NCBI RefSeq assembly: GCF_006345805.1
Contig: NC_043004.1
Span: 104,284,001-104,348,000, forward strand
Length of the DNA stretch: 64,000 nt
Direction: 5' to 3'
Source of the DNA: Octopus sinensis
Taxonomy: Eukaryota
This document shows, piece after piece, positions 20,807-48,375 of the stretch. Within the stretch, counting starts at the first letter, position 1; each line of letters opens with the position of its first letter. Position numbers and translations under genes: made by a program. The notes below the pieces were generated by a model that did not search any database, was not told where the DNA came from, and saw nothing but the letters and a program-made list of their open reading frames with translations.

Positions 20807-21029
20807 CATACATACATACATACATACATACATACATACATGCACACAGTTTCCATCTGGAGCATCGCTTTGCAAGATTTAATCCCCAGTACTCATTTTT
20901 TAAAAGTCTGGTACTTTATTCTATTGGTCTTTTTCACCAAACTGATAATTTATGGGGATGTAAACAAACTAACAGTGGTTATCAAGTAGTTTGTGGAGAG
21001 GACAACATAAACACATGCACACATATTTG

Positions 21030-21355
21030 TTTTGCAAGATTCCTGATGTGAAATCACGTATTGAAACAAATATTGTTATATTTTGGGATGATCATTTCTT
21101 TTTGTGTCGAATAAACACACGCTCTGTGTATTCGTTCTTCACCTCAGCTTTATTATTGCTTTTATTTTATTGTCATTTATCTAAAATCTTTCATCACACA
21201 TCCTGTGACCTCTTCAGTGATTCTACATTCCATGTCTCTCCTCCATTCACTGAAGAGGTCACCAGATGTTTGATGAAAAATTTCAGACAAAGGACATTAA
21301 AATAAGCACAATAATAAAGCTGAAGGGAAGAACGAATATAGAGTGCATGTTTATT
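21030..21355. mobile_element. Fold-back element with hammerhead-like motifs in both arms (21110-21220 / 21247-21355)
   Basis: Right arm tca-CTGAAGA-ggtcac-cagatgt-ttgat-GAAA-AATT-TC; left arm is the mirror image. The 3' extension is homologous to 32200-32290. Confidence 0.7.
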
Positions 21356-21387
21356 TGCCACATACAAAAAAAAAAGAAAAAACATCC

Positions 21388-29808: not shown

Positions 29809-30078
29809 GGTGGGAAGTAGATAGATAAATAGACTGGTAGATAGACAGATAGATAGGTAGAAAGATAGACAGACAGACAGACATAGATAGATAGGTATAC
29901 ACACGCATACATGCACTTACAAATTCACAGAAAGCCTATTCAGGTCATCCCTACTGGGAAAGTCCTTGCCCTGAAACTCACATAGTGAGAACCTTTGTGA
30001 AGCAGCAGAATGGATCTTCAGCTTTCAACTAATAAATAAATACTACAACTTGTACATTCTTTCTTTTGTTTGTTTGCC

Positions 30079-30126
<48 letters not shown>

Positions 30127-30543
30127 TGGATACGTACATATATGGTCATCATGATCAATCATTGTTTTAATGTTCACGTTATCATGCTTGCATAAATCAG
30201 CTGGATTTTGATGAGTGGATTTTTCTGTGGCCAGATGTCCCTCCTGTTGCCAGCCCTCACCTGTTTCCAAGCAAGGTGATGTTTCCTCATGGCCTGATAT
30301 GTTTACACTGAAGATTGGGAACAAACAACACCATTTCTACGGTAGCACTCATTGACAACTTTCACATGATGTCGAGACAAGGTAACACACATACACACAC
30401 GAGGATGTGGGTATGTAAGTGCAGGCATGGGTTGTAGTTCTGAAGCTAGCTTTGGAACCATGTAGGTTCAGGTAAGTTGCTATTGTATTGATACTGTTGG
30501 TTGGTGTCATCTGTAGCCAAGGACTAATAATAATAACAATAAC

Positions 30544-30616
<73 letters not shown>

Positions 30617-30621
30617 GTAAT

Positions 30622-31149
30622 TGCCCTGATGCAGTACCAGGCAGTGGCTCTCATGGCTTCTGATCTTAATTGATTGGAATTGTTATCATGTACATTGCTT
30701 TGTCTTGTTATGAAAGATGGGCTACAGCAAATGTTCTGCTCAAGACCACAGATTTGTTTGACCATTACCAGTTGAGCATGACGATACGTGCATCTCTGAT
30801 CACAAGCAGAAGTAGTGGGGGTAGCATCATAACCATGTATTGAGAGGAATTCCTTGGGGTTTGTATAATTCACTTTTGGGAACATAGGTGTGTCGTTCAA
30901 CATCCTTAAACAACCCTTATTCAGGGACCTTTTGAGTGGGATGGTCTACTCAACCTGAAGAAAATTCTAACTGGGCCCCACCTCCAAGGTCATGTGCTGT
31001 TTATCTTGATAAACATATGTTTTCACACACATATGGTTGTGATACATGTACCTGGTGTACCTTTATCAGAGGGTAGTCATGATGGGTATATTGGGCTTTG
31101 TATATTTTACCCCAGTGTCACTTTGATGGCATGCACTACTCTCTCACTC
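30622..31149 (+). mobile_element. ~530-bp non-coding retroposon embedded in (TAA)n
   Basis: Second copy in inverse orientation at 33338-33887; both are flanked by TAA tracts. Confidence 0.85.
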
Positions 31150-31374
31150 TATAATAATAATAATAATAATAATCATCTCAACATCTTTTAATGTCCTTTG
31201 TCCATGCTGGCATGGGTCAAATGGTTTGACCAGAGCTGGTAAGCCAGAGAGCTGCACCAAGCTCCAGTCTGATTTGGCATGGTTTCCATGACTGGATGCC
31301 CTTCCTAATGCCAACCATTTTACAGAGTGTGTTAGATGCTTTTATGTGGAACCAGCACAAATAATAATAGTGAT

Positions 31375-31818
31375 TATCCTTTCTACTATACGCACAAGGC
31401 ATGAAATTTTTGGGGAGGGGGGCAAGTCAATTACATCAACCTCTGTACATAACTGGTATTTATTTCATTGATCCTAAAAAGATGAAAGGCAAAGTCAACC
31501 TTGGAGGAATTTGAACTCAGCACACAAGGATGGATGAAATGGCGCTAAACATTTTGCCTGGCATGCTAATGATTCTGCCAGCTCACCACCTGAATAATAA
31601 TTGATGGTAATCCTTTCTATTATAGGCATAAAGCCTGAAATTCTGGGAGCAGGGAGCTAGTTGATTACATCAACCCCAGTTTTCAACTGATATTTATTTC
31701 ATCGATCCTGAAAGGATGGAAAGCAAAATCAACCTTGGTGAGTTTGAACTCAGACTGTAGAGATAGAGGAAATGCTGCTAAACACTTTGCCCGTGCAGCA
31801 ATGATTCTGCCACCTTGT
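31375..31818 (-). mobile_element. Two tandem Meta-domain-like SINE copies (family D)
   Basis: Both contain the reverse complement of (g)ccttt(c)catcctt..ggatc(g/a)atgaaataaata(c/t)cag; they match 41000-41214. Confidence 0.75.
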
Positions 31819-31867
31819 GGTCTTAATAATAATAATAATAATAATAATGATAATTATAATAACAACA

Positions 31868-32300
31868 ACACACGCACTATATATTTGGTGTTATTTTGCT
31901 TCAGTGTTATTTATTTTTTACATTAATCTTAATCTTATTTCGGCCAGAGTTCTTTCGTCACACTCCTGTGGCTGCATCAGTGGTCCTTTGCTTTCTTCTT
32001 TCTTATTTGCATTTTTTTGAAAATACAAAATGGCTGACGGTTAGTAAGGAGAGACACACAAATAAGAAAGAAGAAAGCAAAAGACCACTGATGCGGTCAC
32101 AGGAGTGTGACGAAAGAACTCTGGCCGAAATAAGATTAAGTTTAATGTAAAAAATAAATAACACTGAAGCAAAATAACACCAAATATATAGTGCGTGTGT
32201 TTTTATTGGCTAAACTGGCAAAATGACCATTCCGAAATACAACAATACCTGTTTCAACACACGATTTCACATAAAAATTCTTGCACAACGAATATATAAA
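31868..32300. mobile_element. Young fold-back element with 142-bp inverted arms (31868-32009 / 32059-32200), each with a hammerhead-like motif
   Basis: About 4 mismatches between arms by eye; 49-bp spacer; right arm continues ~100 bp into a tail homologous to 21030-21110. Confidence 0.85.
32083..32126 (+). ncRNA. Minimal type I hammerhead ribozyme-like motif (A9C core variant)
   Basis: GACCA-CTGATGC-g-GTCAC-aggagt-GTGAC-GAAA-gaac-TC-TGGCC: stem I 4/5 bp, perfect 5-bp stem II, CUC cleavage triplet. Mirror copy on the minus strand at 31942-31985. Confidence 0.6.
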
Positions 32301-32322
32301 CGTAATAATAATAACAATAATA

Positions 32323-32359
<37 letters not shown>

Positions 32360-32380
32360 TCATCATCATCATCATCATCA

Positions 32381-32925
32381 CCGTACATACCGACAAAACT
32401 ATAAAAGCTAATCCCTGTACATACTGACAAAACTATAAAGCTAATAAACCAGATATCATTATAAAAGATCAGACAAAAAGGATGTGTTTATTAATTGACA
32501 TGATTATTCCTTGCGATCACAATATAGAGGCGAAAGAATTTGACAAGATCAGTAAATATAAAGACTTACTAATAGAAATTGAAAAAATGTAGCATCTCAA
32601 GGCGACTACAGTACCAGTGATTGTAGGAGCTCTAGGAATTATTAAAAAGGTTCTGAAACCTATTTGAAAATGATATCAGGCTTACCATCCCTACAGGAAT
32701 TGCAAAAAATCGTGTTAACTGGAGCGGTTCATGTACTAAGAAGAGCATTATCGCTGTGAAAACAACATCCATTCATGAATTTATTTATTTATTAATTTTT
32801 TAAATACATATTTTACCTGTGAATTTGCTTGTGTAATCTGGGAATGCATACAATGAGCTTCTCTGCCCTAAGTGTACGGAAAACACTCGGCAAGAAACAG
32901 AAAAAAATTTGAAGAAAGAAGGAAA
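32381..32925 (+). pseudogene. 5'-truncated R4/Dong-clade non-LTR retrotransposon (restriction-like endonuclease C-terminus plus 3' UTR)
   Basis: Conceptual translation across frameshifts: HTDKTIKANKPDIIIKD..CLLIDMIIPCDHNIEAKEFDKISKYKDLLIEIEKM*HLKATTVPVIVGALG...LQKIVLTGAVHVLRRAL; ends in (TAA)n. Confidence 0.85.
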
Positions 32926-33040
32926 TAATAATAATAATAATGATGATGATAATAATAATGTATGCACCACATATGCTATATAGTTGACATATGCCCCTTT
33001 GACCCCCAAATAGGTCAGAAGGAAAATGAAAAGATAGAGA

Positions 33041-33200
33041 CAACCCTCTTAAGTATGAAATTGTCTGGCTATGGAAAATGAAGAAGGTGAAGAGAGTGCC
33101 AATTATTGTTGGTTCGTTGGGAACAGTATCAGAAGGCTTCAAGAGGAATATAAAGGAAATTGGAATAGAGTTCCCAGTAGAACTGTTACAAAAGGCTTGT
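33041..33200 (+). pseudogene. R4/Dong-like RLE fragment, second subfamily
   Basis: PLKYEIVWLWKMKKVKRVPIIVGSLGTVSEGFKRNIKEIGIEFPVELLQKAC. Confidence 0.75.
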
Positions 33201-33337
33201 ACTAATAAGAACGAAGTATGAATAGTTCTTCATTTTATCAATCTTGGAAGGTTAAAAGGCAAAATTTACTGAAAAACATTTTGTCTGGATTTACCTTTCT
33301 TAGCCACTTTAGCACCCACATTATTATTATTATTATT

Positions 33338-33887
33338 GAGTGAGAGAGCAGTGCATGCCATCAAAGTGACACTGGGGTAAAATATACGAAGCTCAATATA
33401 CCCATCATGACTACCCGTCTGATAAGGGTACACCAGGCACATGCATCACAACCATATGTGCGCGACATGGTGATCTCATATCAAGATAAACTGCACATGA
33501 CCTTGCAGGTGGGGCCCAGTTAGAATTTTCTTCAGGTTGAGTGGCCCATCCCGCTCAAACGGTCCCTGAATAAGGGTTGTTTAAGGATATTGAAAAAACC
33601 ACCCATGTCTCCAGAGGTGAATTATTCAAACCCCAAAGAATCCCTCTCAACACATGGCTATGATGCTCCCCCACTACTTCTGCTCGTGATCAGAGATGCA
33701 CATATCGTCAGCCACTAAGAGACATGCTCAGCTGGTTAAGGTCAAACAACTGACAATCAAATCTGTGGTATTGAACAGAATATTTGCTGTATCCCATCTT
33801 TTATACCAAGACAAAACAATGTACATGATAACACTTCCAATCAGTTAAGATCAGAAGCCATGAGAGCCACTGCCTGGTACTGCATCA
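33338..33887 (-). mobile_element. Second copy of the TAA-associated non-coding retroposon
   Basis: Reverse complement of 30622-31149, flanked by (TTA)n. Confidence 0.85.
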
Positions 33888-33949
33888 TATTATTATTATT
33901 ATTATTATTTTATTATTATTATTAATTGATTAATTAATTAATTTATTTA

Positions 33950-34250
33950 TTCTTTTTTTATCTCAGGTTTTGTTGTAACACTTGGAGTCTTGCATGCGTA
34001 GCAGGCTTACTACCTGCAGCCTACATTACCATGCTATTTGTTCTTTTCAGCTACCTAATACTTTCCTGGTTATTCTGGCCATGCCAGGGAGGCAAACCTT
34101 TTGTAACAACAGTTCTACTGGGCACTCTATTCCAATTTCCATTATATTCCTCTTGATGCCTTCTGATACTGTCCCCAAGGAACCAACAGTAATTGGCACG
34201 ATCTTCACCTTTTTCCTTTTCCATAGCCAGGCTATGTTGTACTTAAGAGG
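33950..34250 (-). pseudogene. R4/Dong-like RLE 3' end, same subfamily as 33041-33200
   Basis: Reverse complement matches 33041-33200 and continues to the stop and 3' UTR; bounded by (TTA)n. Confidence 0.75.
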
Positions 34251-42386: not shown

Positions 42387-45182
42387 TCATGTAAAGAGTT
42401 CAGGCCACTTGAGGTCCAGGGAGGCTTTGAACAAAGCGGTCGTCGGCATCTTCACCATCTCATCTGGCAGCTTGTTCCACGGATCCGCAACCCGGACGGA
42501 GAAAGCTCCTCTCCTTCGATTGAGATGAAATCGTCGCAGGTAGAGCTTTTCGGAATGACCCCGCAGCCGACGCTCTGGAGCAGGAGTGAAGAACAGCTCT
42601 TTCGAGAGGTTACACTTCCCGCTTATGATGTTGTGGGCGAGAATGAGATCACCACGGCGGCGGCGTTTTTCAAGAGAATAAAGGTCGAGCTTCCTCAGCC
42701 TTTCTTCGTAGGACAAATTTTTGAGACCATGAACCATGCGGGTAGCCAGCTTCTGGACTCTTTCGAGGTGCTGTATGTCTTTGAGGAGATAAGGAGAAGA
42801 GGCTTGAATCCCATACTCCAATATGGGTCTCACCAGCGTGACATAGAGTGGCAGGAATATGGCTGCTGTGAGCACTCCGAATGACCGTCGAATCAAAAAC
42901 AGAATTCCGCGCGCTTTGTTGGCAGCATGGATGCACTGGGCCGAAGGCGAAAAGGAGGAATCCACCAAGATACCCAGGTCCTTTACCTGATCGGTCCTCT
43001 CCAGCAGCAGACGACCCGGCTCGAAATCAAGTTGAGTTGTAGGAGTAGAGCCGACAGGCAGATGACAGCACTTTGACACGTTCAGACACAGGTCCCAATC
43101 GTTAGACCACTTCCAAATTTGGTGGAGGCATCGACGAAGATCCTCTATACTACCGCGAGGAGCGACCAGTTTGATATCGTCGGCAAATAGAAGGGTGTGT
43201 TGCGTGAGGTCGTCGGGCAAGTCATTTATGAAGACTAAGAACAACAAGGGCCCAAGCACTGAACCTTGAGGCACGCCACTGCTCGCACTGGAGACGTCGG
43301 ACCGCGAACCATTAACTTGAACTTGGAAGGAGCGATCTGAGAGGAAGGCACCAACCCATCGTACAATATCCGGATGGAAACTATATGCTTGAAGCTTGAC
43401 AAGTAGTAGGCGGTGGTTTACCGAGTCAAAAGCTTTGGCAAAGTCCAATAAAACGATGTCAACAGCATCACTATCATCGAGGATGCGCGTCACCAATTCT
43501 TCCATTACTAGTAAGTTGGTCAAGCATGATCTCTTCGGCACGAAGCCGTGTTGGGAATCAGTGATCGAGGCTGTGCTTAGGAGGTGGAGCATCATACTTT
43601 TCTTAAGGATGGTTTCGAACATCTTGCTGATTATTGATGTAAGGGAAACCGGTCGGGAGTTAAGCGGGTCTTCGCGGCTCCCTTTCTTGAAAATTGGGCA
43701 GATTATCGCTGTTCTCCAGTCTGCAGGTATAACACCCATCGCCAATGACATATTGAATAGTCGTGTTAAGGGCTCGCAGATGACCGGAGCCAACGCTTTG
43801 ATAACCCGTGGGTGTATGCCGTCAGGGCCGTGACCCTTGTTGACATCGAGGCCTTGAATAACATGTTTGACTTGGTCCCGCGTGATGAGCAATCGAAGCA
43901 TTGGAGGTACCGATCTATCAAATGGAGGGGGTTCACGACCATCATCTTGTTTGAAAATAGTTGAAAAAGCCTCGGCAAATAATTGACTCTGTTGATAAGG
44001 GTCCTCAATCGATACGCCTATTGAGTCTACCAATGTTACAATCTGGTTGTTCAAGCGGGAATTCCGCTGGACATGGGCAAAGAAGGTTTTTGGATTGCTA
44101 CTGGCATTTGCCGCGATTTTGTATTCATAACTGAAGCGTTCTTTCTTTTCAATTTTCACGGCTCGGTCTCGTTGAGTTTTGTACACCTCAAAAGCTGCAG
44201 TCGAATCTAGATTTTTGAATTCAGCCCAAGCAATATCTCTGAGTCGACGTTCTCGTTTAACCTTCTTCGTCACCCAGGGCTTGTGTTTCTTCCTCTTGGG
44301 ATGTCCAACGGGAACTGCCTGGTCAGTCAAACAGATTACATATGCTTTGAGGGATGACCATAGTTCGTCAACTGAGGACAACGTCATCAGGGAACGCCAG
44401 TCCAGAAGCGCGGAAGCCTCGGTTAGAATTTCAAGATTAATTGCAGAGAAGACTCTACGTGGCAGCAAAGTAATCGTGGGCGTGGAAAAAGTTGTGTGCA
44501 TGACGAACTTCAGGACCGCATGATCACTCTTGGCAAGAGGGGCGCACACAGATACGTCTGACACTGATCTTGGATAGCGGGAGAATACCAGATCTAGCAT
44601 AGATGGCTGCTGCCCAGACCGATGCCTTGTCGGATATTCAACATGTTGCGATAGAAAACAATCTTCAGCCACGTCAAGAAGGGCCTGGCCAAACCGGGAA
44701 GATGTTGTACAAATTGATGCGGGCCAATCGATCATGGGAGCGTTGAAGTCGCCTAGTACCAAGCAGTCATGCGAAGCTGAAACGAATCTTATCGCCTCGA
44801 GTAGATGAGCATCGTCCTGGGGGTCGGCTAGAGGCGGCCTGTAGACAGCCAACACGGGCAGGCAAAACTCAGATAGGCTCAGCTTGCAATAGACGGCATC
44901 GAATTTGGTTGTAGGTTGAGCATTTGTGGGTAGAATACCGCAGGACGGTTTGTGCTCAGACTTAACATACACAGCAACACCTCCACCTCGCCTTTTTCCT
45001 CTGTCACATCTGAAAAGGTCGTAGCCCTGCAAGTGGATCTCTGAGTCCTTTACTGCTGGAGTCAGCCAAGTCTCGGTGATAGCTATCACATCAGGGGAGT
45101 CGCGTAGGGCCAGTGTAAATAGTTCACTGAACTTTGGGAATAAGGAGCACGAGTTGGTGTAGACGATGCTGAGCTGAGAAGT
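42387..45182 (-). CDS. LINE ORF2: APE endonuclease plus reverse transcriptase (frame open from the TAG at 45183-85; no AUG at its start)
   Basis: APE motifs YTN..SL, IAITETW, VYRPP, GDFNAP, LDLVF, SDH; RT motifs RPVSLTS, QHGF, DFAKAFD, GVPQGSVLGPLLF, FADD, DLGI; CR1-type C-terminus (LERVQK, RRRRGDLI, LRGH, WNKLP). No internal stop. Confidence 0.95.
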   Translation of the reverse strand, partial: TSQLSIVYTNSCSLFPKFSELFTLALRDSPDVIAITETWLTPAVKDSEIHLQGYDLFRCDRGKRRGGGVAVYVKSEHKPSCGILPTNAQPTTKFDAVYCKLSLSEFCLPVLAVYRPPLADPQDDAHLLEAIRFVSASHDCLVLGDFNAPMIDWPASICTTSSRFGQALLDVAEDCFLSQHVEYPTRHRSGQQPSMLDLVFSRYPRSVSDVSVCAPLAKSDHAVLKFVMHTTFSTPTITLLPRRVFSAINLEILTEASALLDWRSLMTLSSVDELWSSLKAYVICLTDQAVPVGHPKRKKHKPWVTKKVKRERRLRDIAWAEFKNLDSTAAFEVYKTQRDRAVKIEKKERFSYEYKIAANASSNPKTFFAHVQRNSRLNNQIVTLVDSIGVSIEDPYQQSQLFAEAFSTIFKQDDGREPPPFDRSVPPMLRLLITRDQVKHVIQGLDVNKGHGPDGIHPRVIKALAPVICEPLTRLFNMSLAMGVIPADWRTAIICPIFKKGSREDPLNSRPVSLTSIISKMFETILKKSMMLHLLSTASITDSQHGFVPKRSCLTNLLVMEELVTRILDDSDAVDIVLLDFAKAFDSVNHRLLLVKLQAYSFHPDIVRWVGAFLSDRSFQVQVNGSRSDVSSASSGVPQGSVLGPLLFLVFINDLPDDLTQHTLLFADDIKLVAPRGSIEDLRRCLHQIWKWSNDWDLCLNVSKCCHLPVGSTPTTQLDFEPGRLLLERTDQVKDLGILVDSSFSPSAQCIHAANKARGILFLIRRSFGVLTAAIFLPLYVTLVRPILEYGIQASSPYLLKDIQHLERVQKLATRMVHGLKNLSYEERLRKLDLYSLEKRRRRGDLILAHNIISGKCNLSKELFFTPAPERRLRGHSEKLYLRRFHLNRRRGAFSVRVADPWNKLPDEMVKMPTTALFKASLDLKWPELFT

Positions 45183-46585: not shown

Positions 46586-46644
46586 ATATATATATATATA
46601 TATATATATGTATCAGACTATAAATATATATATATCTATGAAGG

Positions 46645-48375
46645 TTGCTGAATAAAGAAAATGAATGGGATAAAGAGAGCCTGCCGAACGTTGACCCAAC
46701 AGAGGGACCAGCTATCAGGGTTGATAGTTTCTTAGTAGCTAAGGCAATTAGAAGCATAAAGACAGGGAAAGCCCCAGGCCCATCAGGTATCACTGCAGAG
46801 ATGCTCAAAATATCTGGTAGTGTCGGCTATAGCCTAGTCACCTGTATAGTTAATCAGGTGATACATGAAGGAGTCATACCCAATGACTGGTGTAGCAGCA
46901 TAATAGTCAACTGCTACAAAGGTAAAGGTGATGCCCTAGATACAAATAATTACAGAGGTATCAAGCTGTTGGATCAGGTGATGAAGGTTACAGAGAGGGT
47001 CATAAGCCAACTAATTAGAGAGAAAGTTAGTTTAGATGAGATGCAGTTTGGTTTCGTGCCAGGGAAAAGTACCACTGATGCTATATTCCTGGTAAGGCAG
47101 CTGCAGGAGAAATACCTAGCCAAAGATAAGGCCCTGTACCTGGCTTTTGTTGACATGGAGAAAGCCGTCGACAGGGTCCCCCGATCCCTCATATGGTGGT
47201 CAGTGAGGAAACTAGGAATAGAAGAATGGTTAGTGAGAGCTGTGCAAGCCATGTACAGGGACGCTGCTAGTAAGGTGAGGGTTGGAAATGAGTACAGTGA
47301 AGAATTCCGGGTAGAGGTAGGGGTCCACCAAGGCTCAGTCCTCAGCCCCCTCCTATTTATCATAGTCCTCCAGGCAATAACGGAGGAATTCAAGACAGGA
47401 TGCCCCTGGGAGCTCCTCTATGCTGATGACCTTGCTCTAATTGCTGAGTCATTATCAGAACTGGAGAAGAAGTTTCAGGTGTGGAAGCATGGTTTAGAAT
47501 CGAAGGGCCTTAGAGTCAACCTAGCTAAAACCAAAGTCCTAATAAGTAGGAAGGTAGACAAATCACAAACGCCTTCAGGTAGATGGCCCTGCTCGATCTG
47601 TAGAAAAGGTGTAGGTAGAAACTCTATAAGATGCACCAAGTGTAAGCTATGGACACATAAGAGGTGCAGCAATGTCATAGGAAGGCTAACTAGGAAGATG
47701 GCTTTTGTATGTGGCAGATGCTCGGGAGCATTAACCTCTGAAAATCTGCAGAAAACAACTTCCGTCACTTTCCAGGGGGAAAAACTAGAAGTAGTTGATA
47801 GCTTCCGTTATCTTGGTGACCAAGTCAGTAGTGGGGGTGGGTGTGCTGAAAGTGTAACGGCTAGAGTAAGAATAGCCTGGGCAAAGTTTAGGGAGCTCTT
47901 ACCTCTGTTGGTGACTAAAGGCCTCTCGCTCAGAGTAAAAGGCAGACTGTATGATGCATGTGTACGAACAGCCATGCTACATGGCAGTGAAACATGGGCC
48001 GTGACTGCTGAGGACATGCGTAAGCTCGCGAGAAATGAAGCTAGTATGCTCCGTTGGATGTGTAATGTCAGTGTTCATAGTCGACAGAGTGTAAGTACCT
48101 TGAGAGAAAAGTTGGACCTGAGAGGAATCAGATGTTGTGTGCAAGAGAGACGATTGCGCTGGTATGGTCATGTGGTGAGAATGGATGAAGATAGGTGTGT
48201 GAAAAAGTGCCACACCCTGGCAGTTGAGGGGACCTGTGGAAGAGGTAGACCCAGGAAAACCTGGGTCGAGGTGGTGAAGCACGACCTTCGAACTCTAGGT
48301 CTCACCAAGGAAATGACCAGAGACCGAGACCTATGGAAGTATGCTGTGCGTGAGAAGACCCGGCAAGACCAGTGA
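46645..48375 (+). CDS. Partial RTE ORF: reverse transcriptase with embedded PHD-like Zn finger (endonuclease lost by 5' truncation)
   Basis: KAPGPSG, NYRGIKLL, QFGF, DMEKAVD, GVHQGSVLSPLLF, YADD, FRYLG, GSETW, RRLRWYGHV, GRGRPRKTW; C-x2-C...C-x2-C-x4-H-x2-C...C-x2-C at ~47590-47722. Confidence 0.9.
   Translation: MLNKENEWDKESLPNVDPTEGPAIRVDSFLVAKAIRSIKTGKAPGPSGITAEMLKISGSVGYSLVTCIVNQVIHEGVIPNDWCSSIIVNCYKGKGDALDTNNYRGIKLLDQVMKVTERVISQLIREKVSLDEMQFGFVPGKSTTDAIFLVRQLQEKYLAKDKALYLAFVDMEKAVDRVPRSLIWWSVRKLGIEEWLVRAVQAMYRDAASKVRVGNEYSEEFRVEVGVHQGSVLSPLLFIIVLQAITEEFKTGCPWELLYADDLALIAESLSELEKKFQVWKHGLESKGLRVNLAKTKVLISRKVDKSQTPSGRWPCSICRKGVGRNSIRCTKCKLWTHKRCSNVIGRLTRKMAFVCGRCSGALTSENLQKTTSVTFQGEKLEVVDSFRYLGDQVSSGGGCAESVTARVRIAWAKFRELLPLLVTKGLSLRVKGRLYDACVRTAMLHGSETWAVTAEDMRKLARNEASMLRWMCNVSVHSRQSVSTLREKLDLRGIRCCVQERRLRWYGHVVRMDEDRCVKKCHTLAVEGTCGRGRPRKTWVEVVKHDLRTLGLTKEMTRDRDLWKYAVREKTRQDQ

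Follow-up and report, generated by a model that had tools for sequence, protein, structure and literature searches.

The head-to-head inverted repeat at 31868-32200 of the window (the whole 64,000-nucleotide stretch of Octopus sinensis DNA that was analysed) is best described as a one-off, folded-back stub of a Penelope-like element, which is already-known biology, and the hammerhead motif that it carries belongs to a family in which the conserved A9 of the catalytic core is replaced by C. It is suggested, with a probability of roughly 0.6, that the locus is a single stub of this kind and that the family-wide change from A9 to C cripples self-cleavage without having stopped transposition.

The preliminary description of this locus reported two 142-bp arms with about four mismatches around a 49-bp spacer, and the alignment of the arms bears this out: they lie at 31868-32009 and 32059-32200, head-to-head with 49 bp between them, and differ at four positions (31927/32141, 31971/32097, 31973/32095 and 31986/32082). 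The right copy extends about 100 bp beyond the symmetry, to about 32303. Sequence comparison identifies it as a 5'-truncated direct copy (32021..32303, + strand) of a Penelope-like 3' pLTR end belonging to an older C9 subfamily, with 94-98% identity to the best-scoring other copies, and the alignment identifies the left arm (31868..32009, - strand) as an inverted, 5'-truncated and tail-less pLTR copy, whose outer end corresponds to about position 32200-32207 and so stops about 40 bp before 32247, where inverted copies usually end. The spacer resolves into 11 bp of filler at the inversion junction (32010..32020, from the genome search) and 38 bp of ordinary element sequence. The direct copy carries the Penelope 'tail' of about 55 bp (32248..32303, +), which is missing from inverted copies. 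On the left the insertion is flanked by an (AAT)n-type microsatellite (31824..31867) and on the right by an (AAT)n/(CAT)n microsatellite (32304..32380), both read from the sequence, and with flanks of this kind no target-site duplication is readable at the insertion. Further out, another repeat is present as two inverted copies of about 85% identity that flank the palindrome (30545-31167 and 33320-33961), and a transcript of this region could therefore form further duplexes.

A search of the genome (2.72 Gb) with 32059-32300 gave 1481 candidates, and the 40 of these that were scored were full-length matches of 95-100% identity. In less truncated copies about 470 bp of UTR lie upstream, and beyond this UTR comes an ORF on the strand of the motif, where an open stretch of 505 aa, ending about 470 bp before the motif, contains YVDD, PLYR, a CX4CxxC linker and a YVGET endonuclease. 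Pfam matches to RVT_1 (E=2e-4 and 1.5e-5) and GIY-YIG (E=0.003) all score under the curated cut-offs, and the Atlas matches at 0.95 are animal RVT_1/HTH_animal/GIY-YIG clusters. At one locus (L188) a whole 3932-bp unit lies between two direct pLTRs together with an inverted copy, and its three motifs are all C9; here the frame from the ATG at 32223, of which the window retains the first 26 codons (32223..32300, +), runs on into the ORF, so that the pLTR holds the ORF start. Two of 18 young loci have open frames of 1044 and 1120 aa, and no copy seen had a complete start-to-stop ORF. The ORF with RT and GIY-YIG (the Pfam scores being sub-cut-off), the pLTR in partial tandem, the inverted truncated copy and the one-sided tail are the features of EN+ Penelope-like elements, and the palindrome is the 3' pLTR end of an autonomous element of this type with an inverted tail-less copy. 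The link to Penelope-like elements that had been drawn from the window alone is thus upheld by the upstream ORF, by the pLTR and by the insertion anatomy.

Canonical EN+ Penelope-like units, in the available parts of PMC8557442 and PMC3846280, resemble this family in the head-to-head truncated copy, the one-sided tail, the pLTR that holds the ORF start, the partial tandem, the microsatellite targets and the order of RT followed by GIY-YIG; their tail measures 30-40 bp as against about 55 bp here, and no other difference was found. Neptune/Nematis-type elements share with it a CX4CxxC linker that precedes a C-terminal GIY-YIG bearing CCHH residues, which is a likeness of motifs; the CX2-5CxxC linker and CCHH residues, as defined in the available portion of PMC8557442, are present in the translations, and a bias towards (TA)n targets, as in Neptune/Nematis-type elements, is seen in 64 of the 85 tailed copies. 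Asparagine/serine-rich low-complexity stretches precede the RT in the ORF (L188:4700-4440 (-), L269 and L270) and recall the N-rich inserts of rotifer Penelope ORFs noted in the part of PMC3846280 that was accessible. At L188:5210-5204 (-) a TACTAAC heptamer stands just past the tail, exactly at the point where insertions end; it falls within the coding frame, and its position may be due to chance. A short ATG and donor-like GT sites (32040/32044) occur at 32030-32049, 50 bp upstream of the motif, and none of the four joints listed for contigs of four presumed-RNA runs, on the pLTR and ORF start, is of the splice type.

The palindrome had been taken for a non-autonomous, Penelope-dependent or retrozyme-like family in which ribozyme folding competes with a long hairpin. 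A palindromic family of this retrozyme- or MITE-like type, moving as a unit and carrying such a switch, would be in keeping with the inverted partner found within 1.5 kb in 12 of the 30 closest loci fetched and with the recurrence of short head-to-head pairs. Nevertheless it is considered extremely improbable, since the junction in the window has one match genome-wide at no more than one mismatch, which argues that there is no palindromic family, and since the inversion distances vary widely, between 0 and about 6 kb, neither repeat is terminal, a tandem array of units is absent and the parent carries an ORF. As regards the tail, 84 of the 225 distinct copies stop at 32247 and 85 extend to the end of the query at 32300. 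The inverted partial copy named in the preliminary description is borne out: of 77 opposite-strand loci with two copies, 76 have them head-to-head and 69 combine one tailed with one tail-less copy, although overlapping loci may count one pair twice in these figures. An ordinary MITE, named at the outset as the outcome that would overturn the hammerhead proposal, was rejected on the non-terminal repeats, the unique junction and the lack of a readable TSD or of a many-copy unit. A non-LTR retrozyme was likewise rejected: the retrozymes described in the available part of bioRxiv 10.64898/2026.07.22.740005 are alike in having a type I hammerhead related to that of the Penelope pLTR, but they are head-to-tail tandem non-coding units, whereas this locus has no head-to-tail tandem unit and is a head-to-head stub of a coding, ORF-bearing element.

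The competition between ribozyme and hairpin also proves to be no contest in silico. In the fold of the read-through RNA the hairpin has a pair probability of 0.99997 and stem II one of about 1e-19, and because the antisense arm is transcribed first on either strand, the hairpin is predicted to win outright. The read-through RNA of either strand would then be expected to form the 142-bp duplex and not the ribozyme, with no switch. The stub probably arose by the target-primed reverse transcription that is described for Penelope in the accessible text of PMC11167929. From established Penelope biology and the anatomy of the family, the GIY-YIG endonuclease would nick the AT-rich microsatellite; the RT would then begin to copy the element RNA at the tail position, which lies about 80 nt inside the ORF, and would halt once about 280 nt had been made; and priming a second time, in inverted orientation, would lay the tail-less copy head-to-head with the first. 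The stub, which lacks an RT, is a dead end.

Other mobile elements lie in the same window. A broken ORF fragment at 32428-32760 (+), with a PD..D and E.EK..KY pattern, seems unrelated to the Penelope stub; it has no Pfam match, and we take it to resemble that end of R4/Dong-type non-LTR elements which encodes the restriction-like endonuclease, a type of element that targets (TAA)n. Two other LINEs are represented by a 931-aa open endonuclease-RT frame at 42387-45182 (-), presumably CR1-like, and by a 577-aa RT frame at 46642-48375 (+), presumably RTE-like.

The hammerhead letters attributed to each arm (CTGATGC, GAAA and a CUC triplet) are confirmed in both, in the form CUGAUG-C, GAAA and CUC, as is the C in place of the conserved A9 (32094 in the right arm and 31974 in the left). 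The right arm holds a minimal type I hammerhead motif at 32082..32126 (+), scoring 67.3 bits with a family model whose training set includes this arm, with C3 at 32088, C9 at 32094, an extra G at 32095 between positions 9 and 10.1, GAAA at 32112-32115 and C17 at 32121; stem I pairs 32085-32087 with 32122-32124, stem II pairs 32096-32101 with 32106-32111 and stem III has 2 bp. Cleavage would be expected 3' of C17, giving the new 5' end at 32122 that had been proposed. The left motif (31942..31987, -; 58.5 bits with the family model; C3 at 31980, C9 at 31974 and C17 at 31947) is degenerate: the arm has private changes at 31971 and 31973, one of which gives a C.A mismatch in stem II, and it thereby lacks the stem II of a minimal type I hammerhead. 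The GTCAC/GTGAC pairing first given for stem II of each arm is accordingly broken on the left, and the actual stem II comprises 6 bp capped by a loop of 4 nt. The stem I first given, GACCA/TGGCC, contains an A.C mismatch that family-type copies accommodate by folding as 3 bp, a bulged A and 2 bp, and in the right arm the outer stem I is lost through a private change at 32082.

The two checks first proposed for the motif had different outcomes. A relaxed descriptor with three contiguous stem I pairs matched the right-arm motif and missed the left arm; this was its one match in the 64 kb, where 100 block-shuffled windows gave 0.02 matches on average. With four contiguous pairs both arms were missed. 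The search for Rfam Hammerhead_1 was negative, with a hammerhead family in none of 20 matches at E<=10 over 30000-34000, all of them hairpin-driven miRNA matches under their gathering scores. No sequence in PDB matched significantly (best E=0.043). Against the core consensus C3 U4 G5 A6 N7 G8 A9...G12 A13 A14 A15.1...U16.1 H17 both arms depart at C9, and the full consensus is present in the A9 subfamily and in sister families.

These sister families bear on where the motif came from. An older head-to-head pair in the same window (21023-21370), which belongs to a sister Penelope family and shares 80-86% identity with most of its best relatives in the genome, carries canonical A9 motifs at 21175-21225 (-) and 21242-21292 (+). 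The older families, found through this pair and a looser pattern, have CUGAAGA-G and the same stem II, with loop 2, position 7 and position 17 variable, and A9 was counted by hand in 85 of the first 100 of 636 matches. Covariation was assessed in 28 rows picked by hand from 112 distinct motifs plus the arm in the window. At one pair of stem I, 13 rows have C-G, 14 have U-A and one is unpaired, and at the stem III pair 16 rows have G-C and 12 have G-U; overall 92% of stem cells are paired, against 17-44% in slid controls, while the innermost stem I pair is, in this register, unpaired or in need of a bulge in 10 of the 28 rows. The covariation anticipated for stems I and II is therefore seen as a compensatory change in stem I, where the swap between C-G and U-A is probably a single between-family event, and not in stem II, which is 97% paired and has no two-sided change. 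Given the A9 and the compensated stem I of the sister families, the motif is to be regarded as descended from a canonical minimal type I hammerhead, as the preliminary description had supposed.

Minimal type I hammerheads, in the available text of PMC4209133, are alike in the type I layout, the short stem I, the 6-bp stem II, the extra base after position 9, the G10.1-C11.1 pair and the 2-bp stem III, and opposite-strand hammerhead pairs 100-700 bp apart are already reported there. The family differs from those hammerheads in having C9 in its dominant lineage and a loop 3 that is not palindromic. The published metazoan consensus, in the part available, has H as the extra base, whereas here it is G in all three motif families, and this G is older than the change to C9. 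The self-duplex of loop 3 contains tandem A.A mismatches and has a predicted energy of +1.4 kcal/mol, as against -3.3 kcal/mol for one copy of a sister family, and such poor self-pairing weakens the route to cleavage as a dimer.

Exact matches to the 34-mer of the motif in the genome, sorted by position 9, number 1987 with C, 166 with A, 46 with T and 3 with G, that is, C9 in 1987 of 2202 exact-pattern copies and A9 in about 8%. Most A9 copies have linked diagnostic letters in common, form one subfamily and lie about 3% from the column majority. A tree of the pLTR only, with distant outgroups, was dropped for rooting owing to flank contamination and a long branch, and the ORF tree with outgroups was used, the subfamily groups being assigned by hand from small-sample trees. 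In this ORF tree the three deepest young rows are A9 (bootstrap 86-90, which is moderate; the basal A9 nodes are unstarred and not resolved in a longer tree). Of the seven A9 rows, four (L053, L064, L065 and L066) are placed among rows with C9, and every row of the youngest clade (100/99) has C9. The L065 locus has one arm with A9 and the other with C9, which suggests a change after insertion. A9 copies are separated from the oldest C9 group by a pS of 0.016. Between the oldest and the youngest C9 groups pS is 0.24 and pN/pS is 0.12 (43 synonymous and 21 non-synonymous changes over 292 codons), which indicates purifying selection on the ORF (p=6e-6 against pooled private changes of 116:208), although the neutral yardstick is rough, the private changes themselves having a pN/pS of 0.38-0.55 and not 1. 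Taken together, C9 appears to be derived, early and dominant, and to have been carried through at least three successive subfamilies under protein-level selection.

A search with ORF DNA, which is blind to the motif, found at least 40 copies at 99-100% identity, and in the 30 loci fetched from it all 35 motifs are C9 and 34 of the 35 have U17. The suggestion of an inactive lineage does not hold for the transposon, given that the C9 lineage holds the youngest copies. A search with the ORF of an A9 copy gave 26 C, 3 A and one gap at position 9 (n=30), and the A9 subfamily has no young copies in the samples examined. In three large runs under three organism labels the A9 share of summed contig depth, a rough measure, is 15%, 7% and 8%, and it is 3% in a shallow fourth run.

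The position of A9 in the strict hammerhead consensus is stated in the accessible text of PMC3088659, and the supplement of PMC4209133, as far as available, gives CUGANGAH; mutations of the core usually cause a drastic loss of activity, although natural core variants of low activity exist (both from the same portion of PMC3088659). The literature searched gave no measured rate for an A9C hammerhead: the available text of the mutational scan in PMC9901934 (eLife) holds no per-base value, and that of PMC11014351 no A9 variant terms. None of the papers listed by a literature search on hammerhead ribozymes in octopus treats this motif, and PMC13282606 mentions no ribozyme. A family-wide, long-lived C9 core thus seems to be a variant that is not in print in the literature searched; that search covered text and searchable supplements, so a published example may be missed.

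In structural terms, A9 forms a sheared A9.G12 pair that positions the general base G12. C9 removes this pair, and cleavage is therefore probably weak or absent; as the C9 family nonetheless kept multiplying for a long time, the cut is likely no longer needed. There are precedents for such dispensability, in that hammerhead mutants of the anole Penelope element leave insertion in vitro unaffected (PMC11167929, in the part available) and Naiads proliferate without a hammerhead motif (PMC8557442, likewise in part).

It is possible, although rather unlikely, that in this one-off stub and its family C9 is instead a tolerated core variant whose cleavage is slow or dependent on a bound protein and which is still selected as a ribozyme. 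The constancy of the motif after the change to C9 fits a retained function and was counted against the reading of a crippled ribozyme. Over about 0.24 synonymous substitutions per site the other core letters and the three stems are unchanged in the majority, and between the oldest and youngest C9 groups only one of 43 motif columns has changed, from C17 to U17 at a position that is free and where the change is permitted, as against about 10 columns expected from the synonymous rate (binomial p=9e-5). Similarly, across the four runs C9/A9 is the only variant that reaches at least 5% of contig depth within 32083-32127. However, the flanking UTR changed in 28 of 495 columns, which does not differ significantly from the motif (Fisher p=0.72), and with flanks similarly constrained the low rate of change does not single the motif out. 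The motif is, on these comparisons, constrained, not demonstrably beyond the rest of the pLTR, and it is probably the general constraint on the pLTR that preserves the fold. A tolerated C9 gains from the natural variants of low activity mentioned above and from the anole hammerhead, which cuts only with protein present (the available part of PMC11167929), yet it is opposed by the strict consensus and by the weak pairing of loop 3. The anole in vitro data, by analogy, are compatible with both the crippled and the protein-assisted reading of C9.

A further scenario, in which C9 copies are only substrates and are cut in trans within a double hammerhead whose catalytic half is RNA from the rarer A9 copies, is suggested by the idea that minimal hammerheads act as dimers (the available text of PMC4209133), by the intact substrate side of the motif and by the presence of A9 in some 8% of exact matches. 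This scenario is very unlikely, given that the A9 copies sampled are old, at about 3% from the column majority, with A9 in 0 of the 35 youngest motifs, that cutting in trans would not preserve the CUGAUG side or stem II in C9 masters, and that loop 3 pairs poorly.

In summary, the family bears on the open question, raised in the available part of PMC8557442, of whether the hammerheads of Penelope elements are needed for transposition or ride along. The family provides a natural matched pair one core base apart, namely an A9 subfamily of which no young copies were sampled and a C9 lineage that went on transposing. Should the C9 motif be dead, the genome would provide evidence that the elements can dispense with cleavage in vivo and yet preserve the fold. 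Should it cut, the core consensus of the hammerhead would have to be widened, together with the descriptors derived from it, and, were C9 a tolerated variant, selection would have kept a C9 hammerhead, probably with the protein of the element as chaperone, through a long run of active masters while the A9 sister lineage died out.
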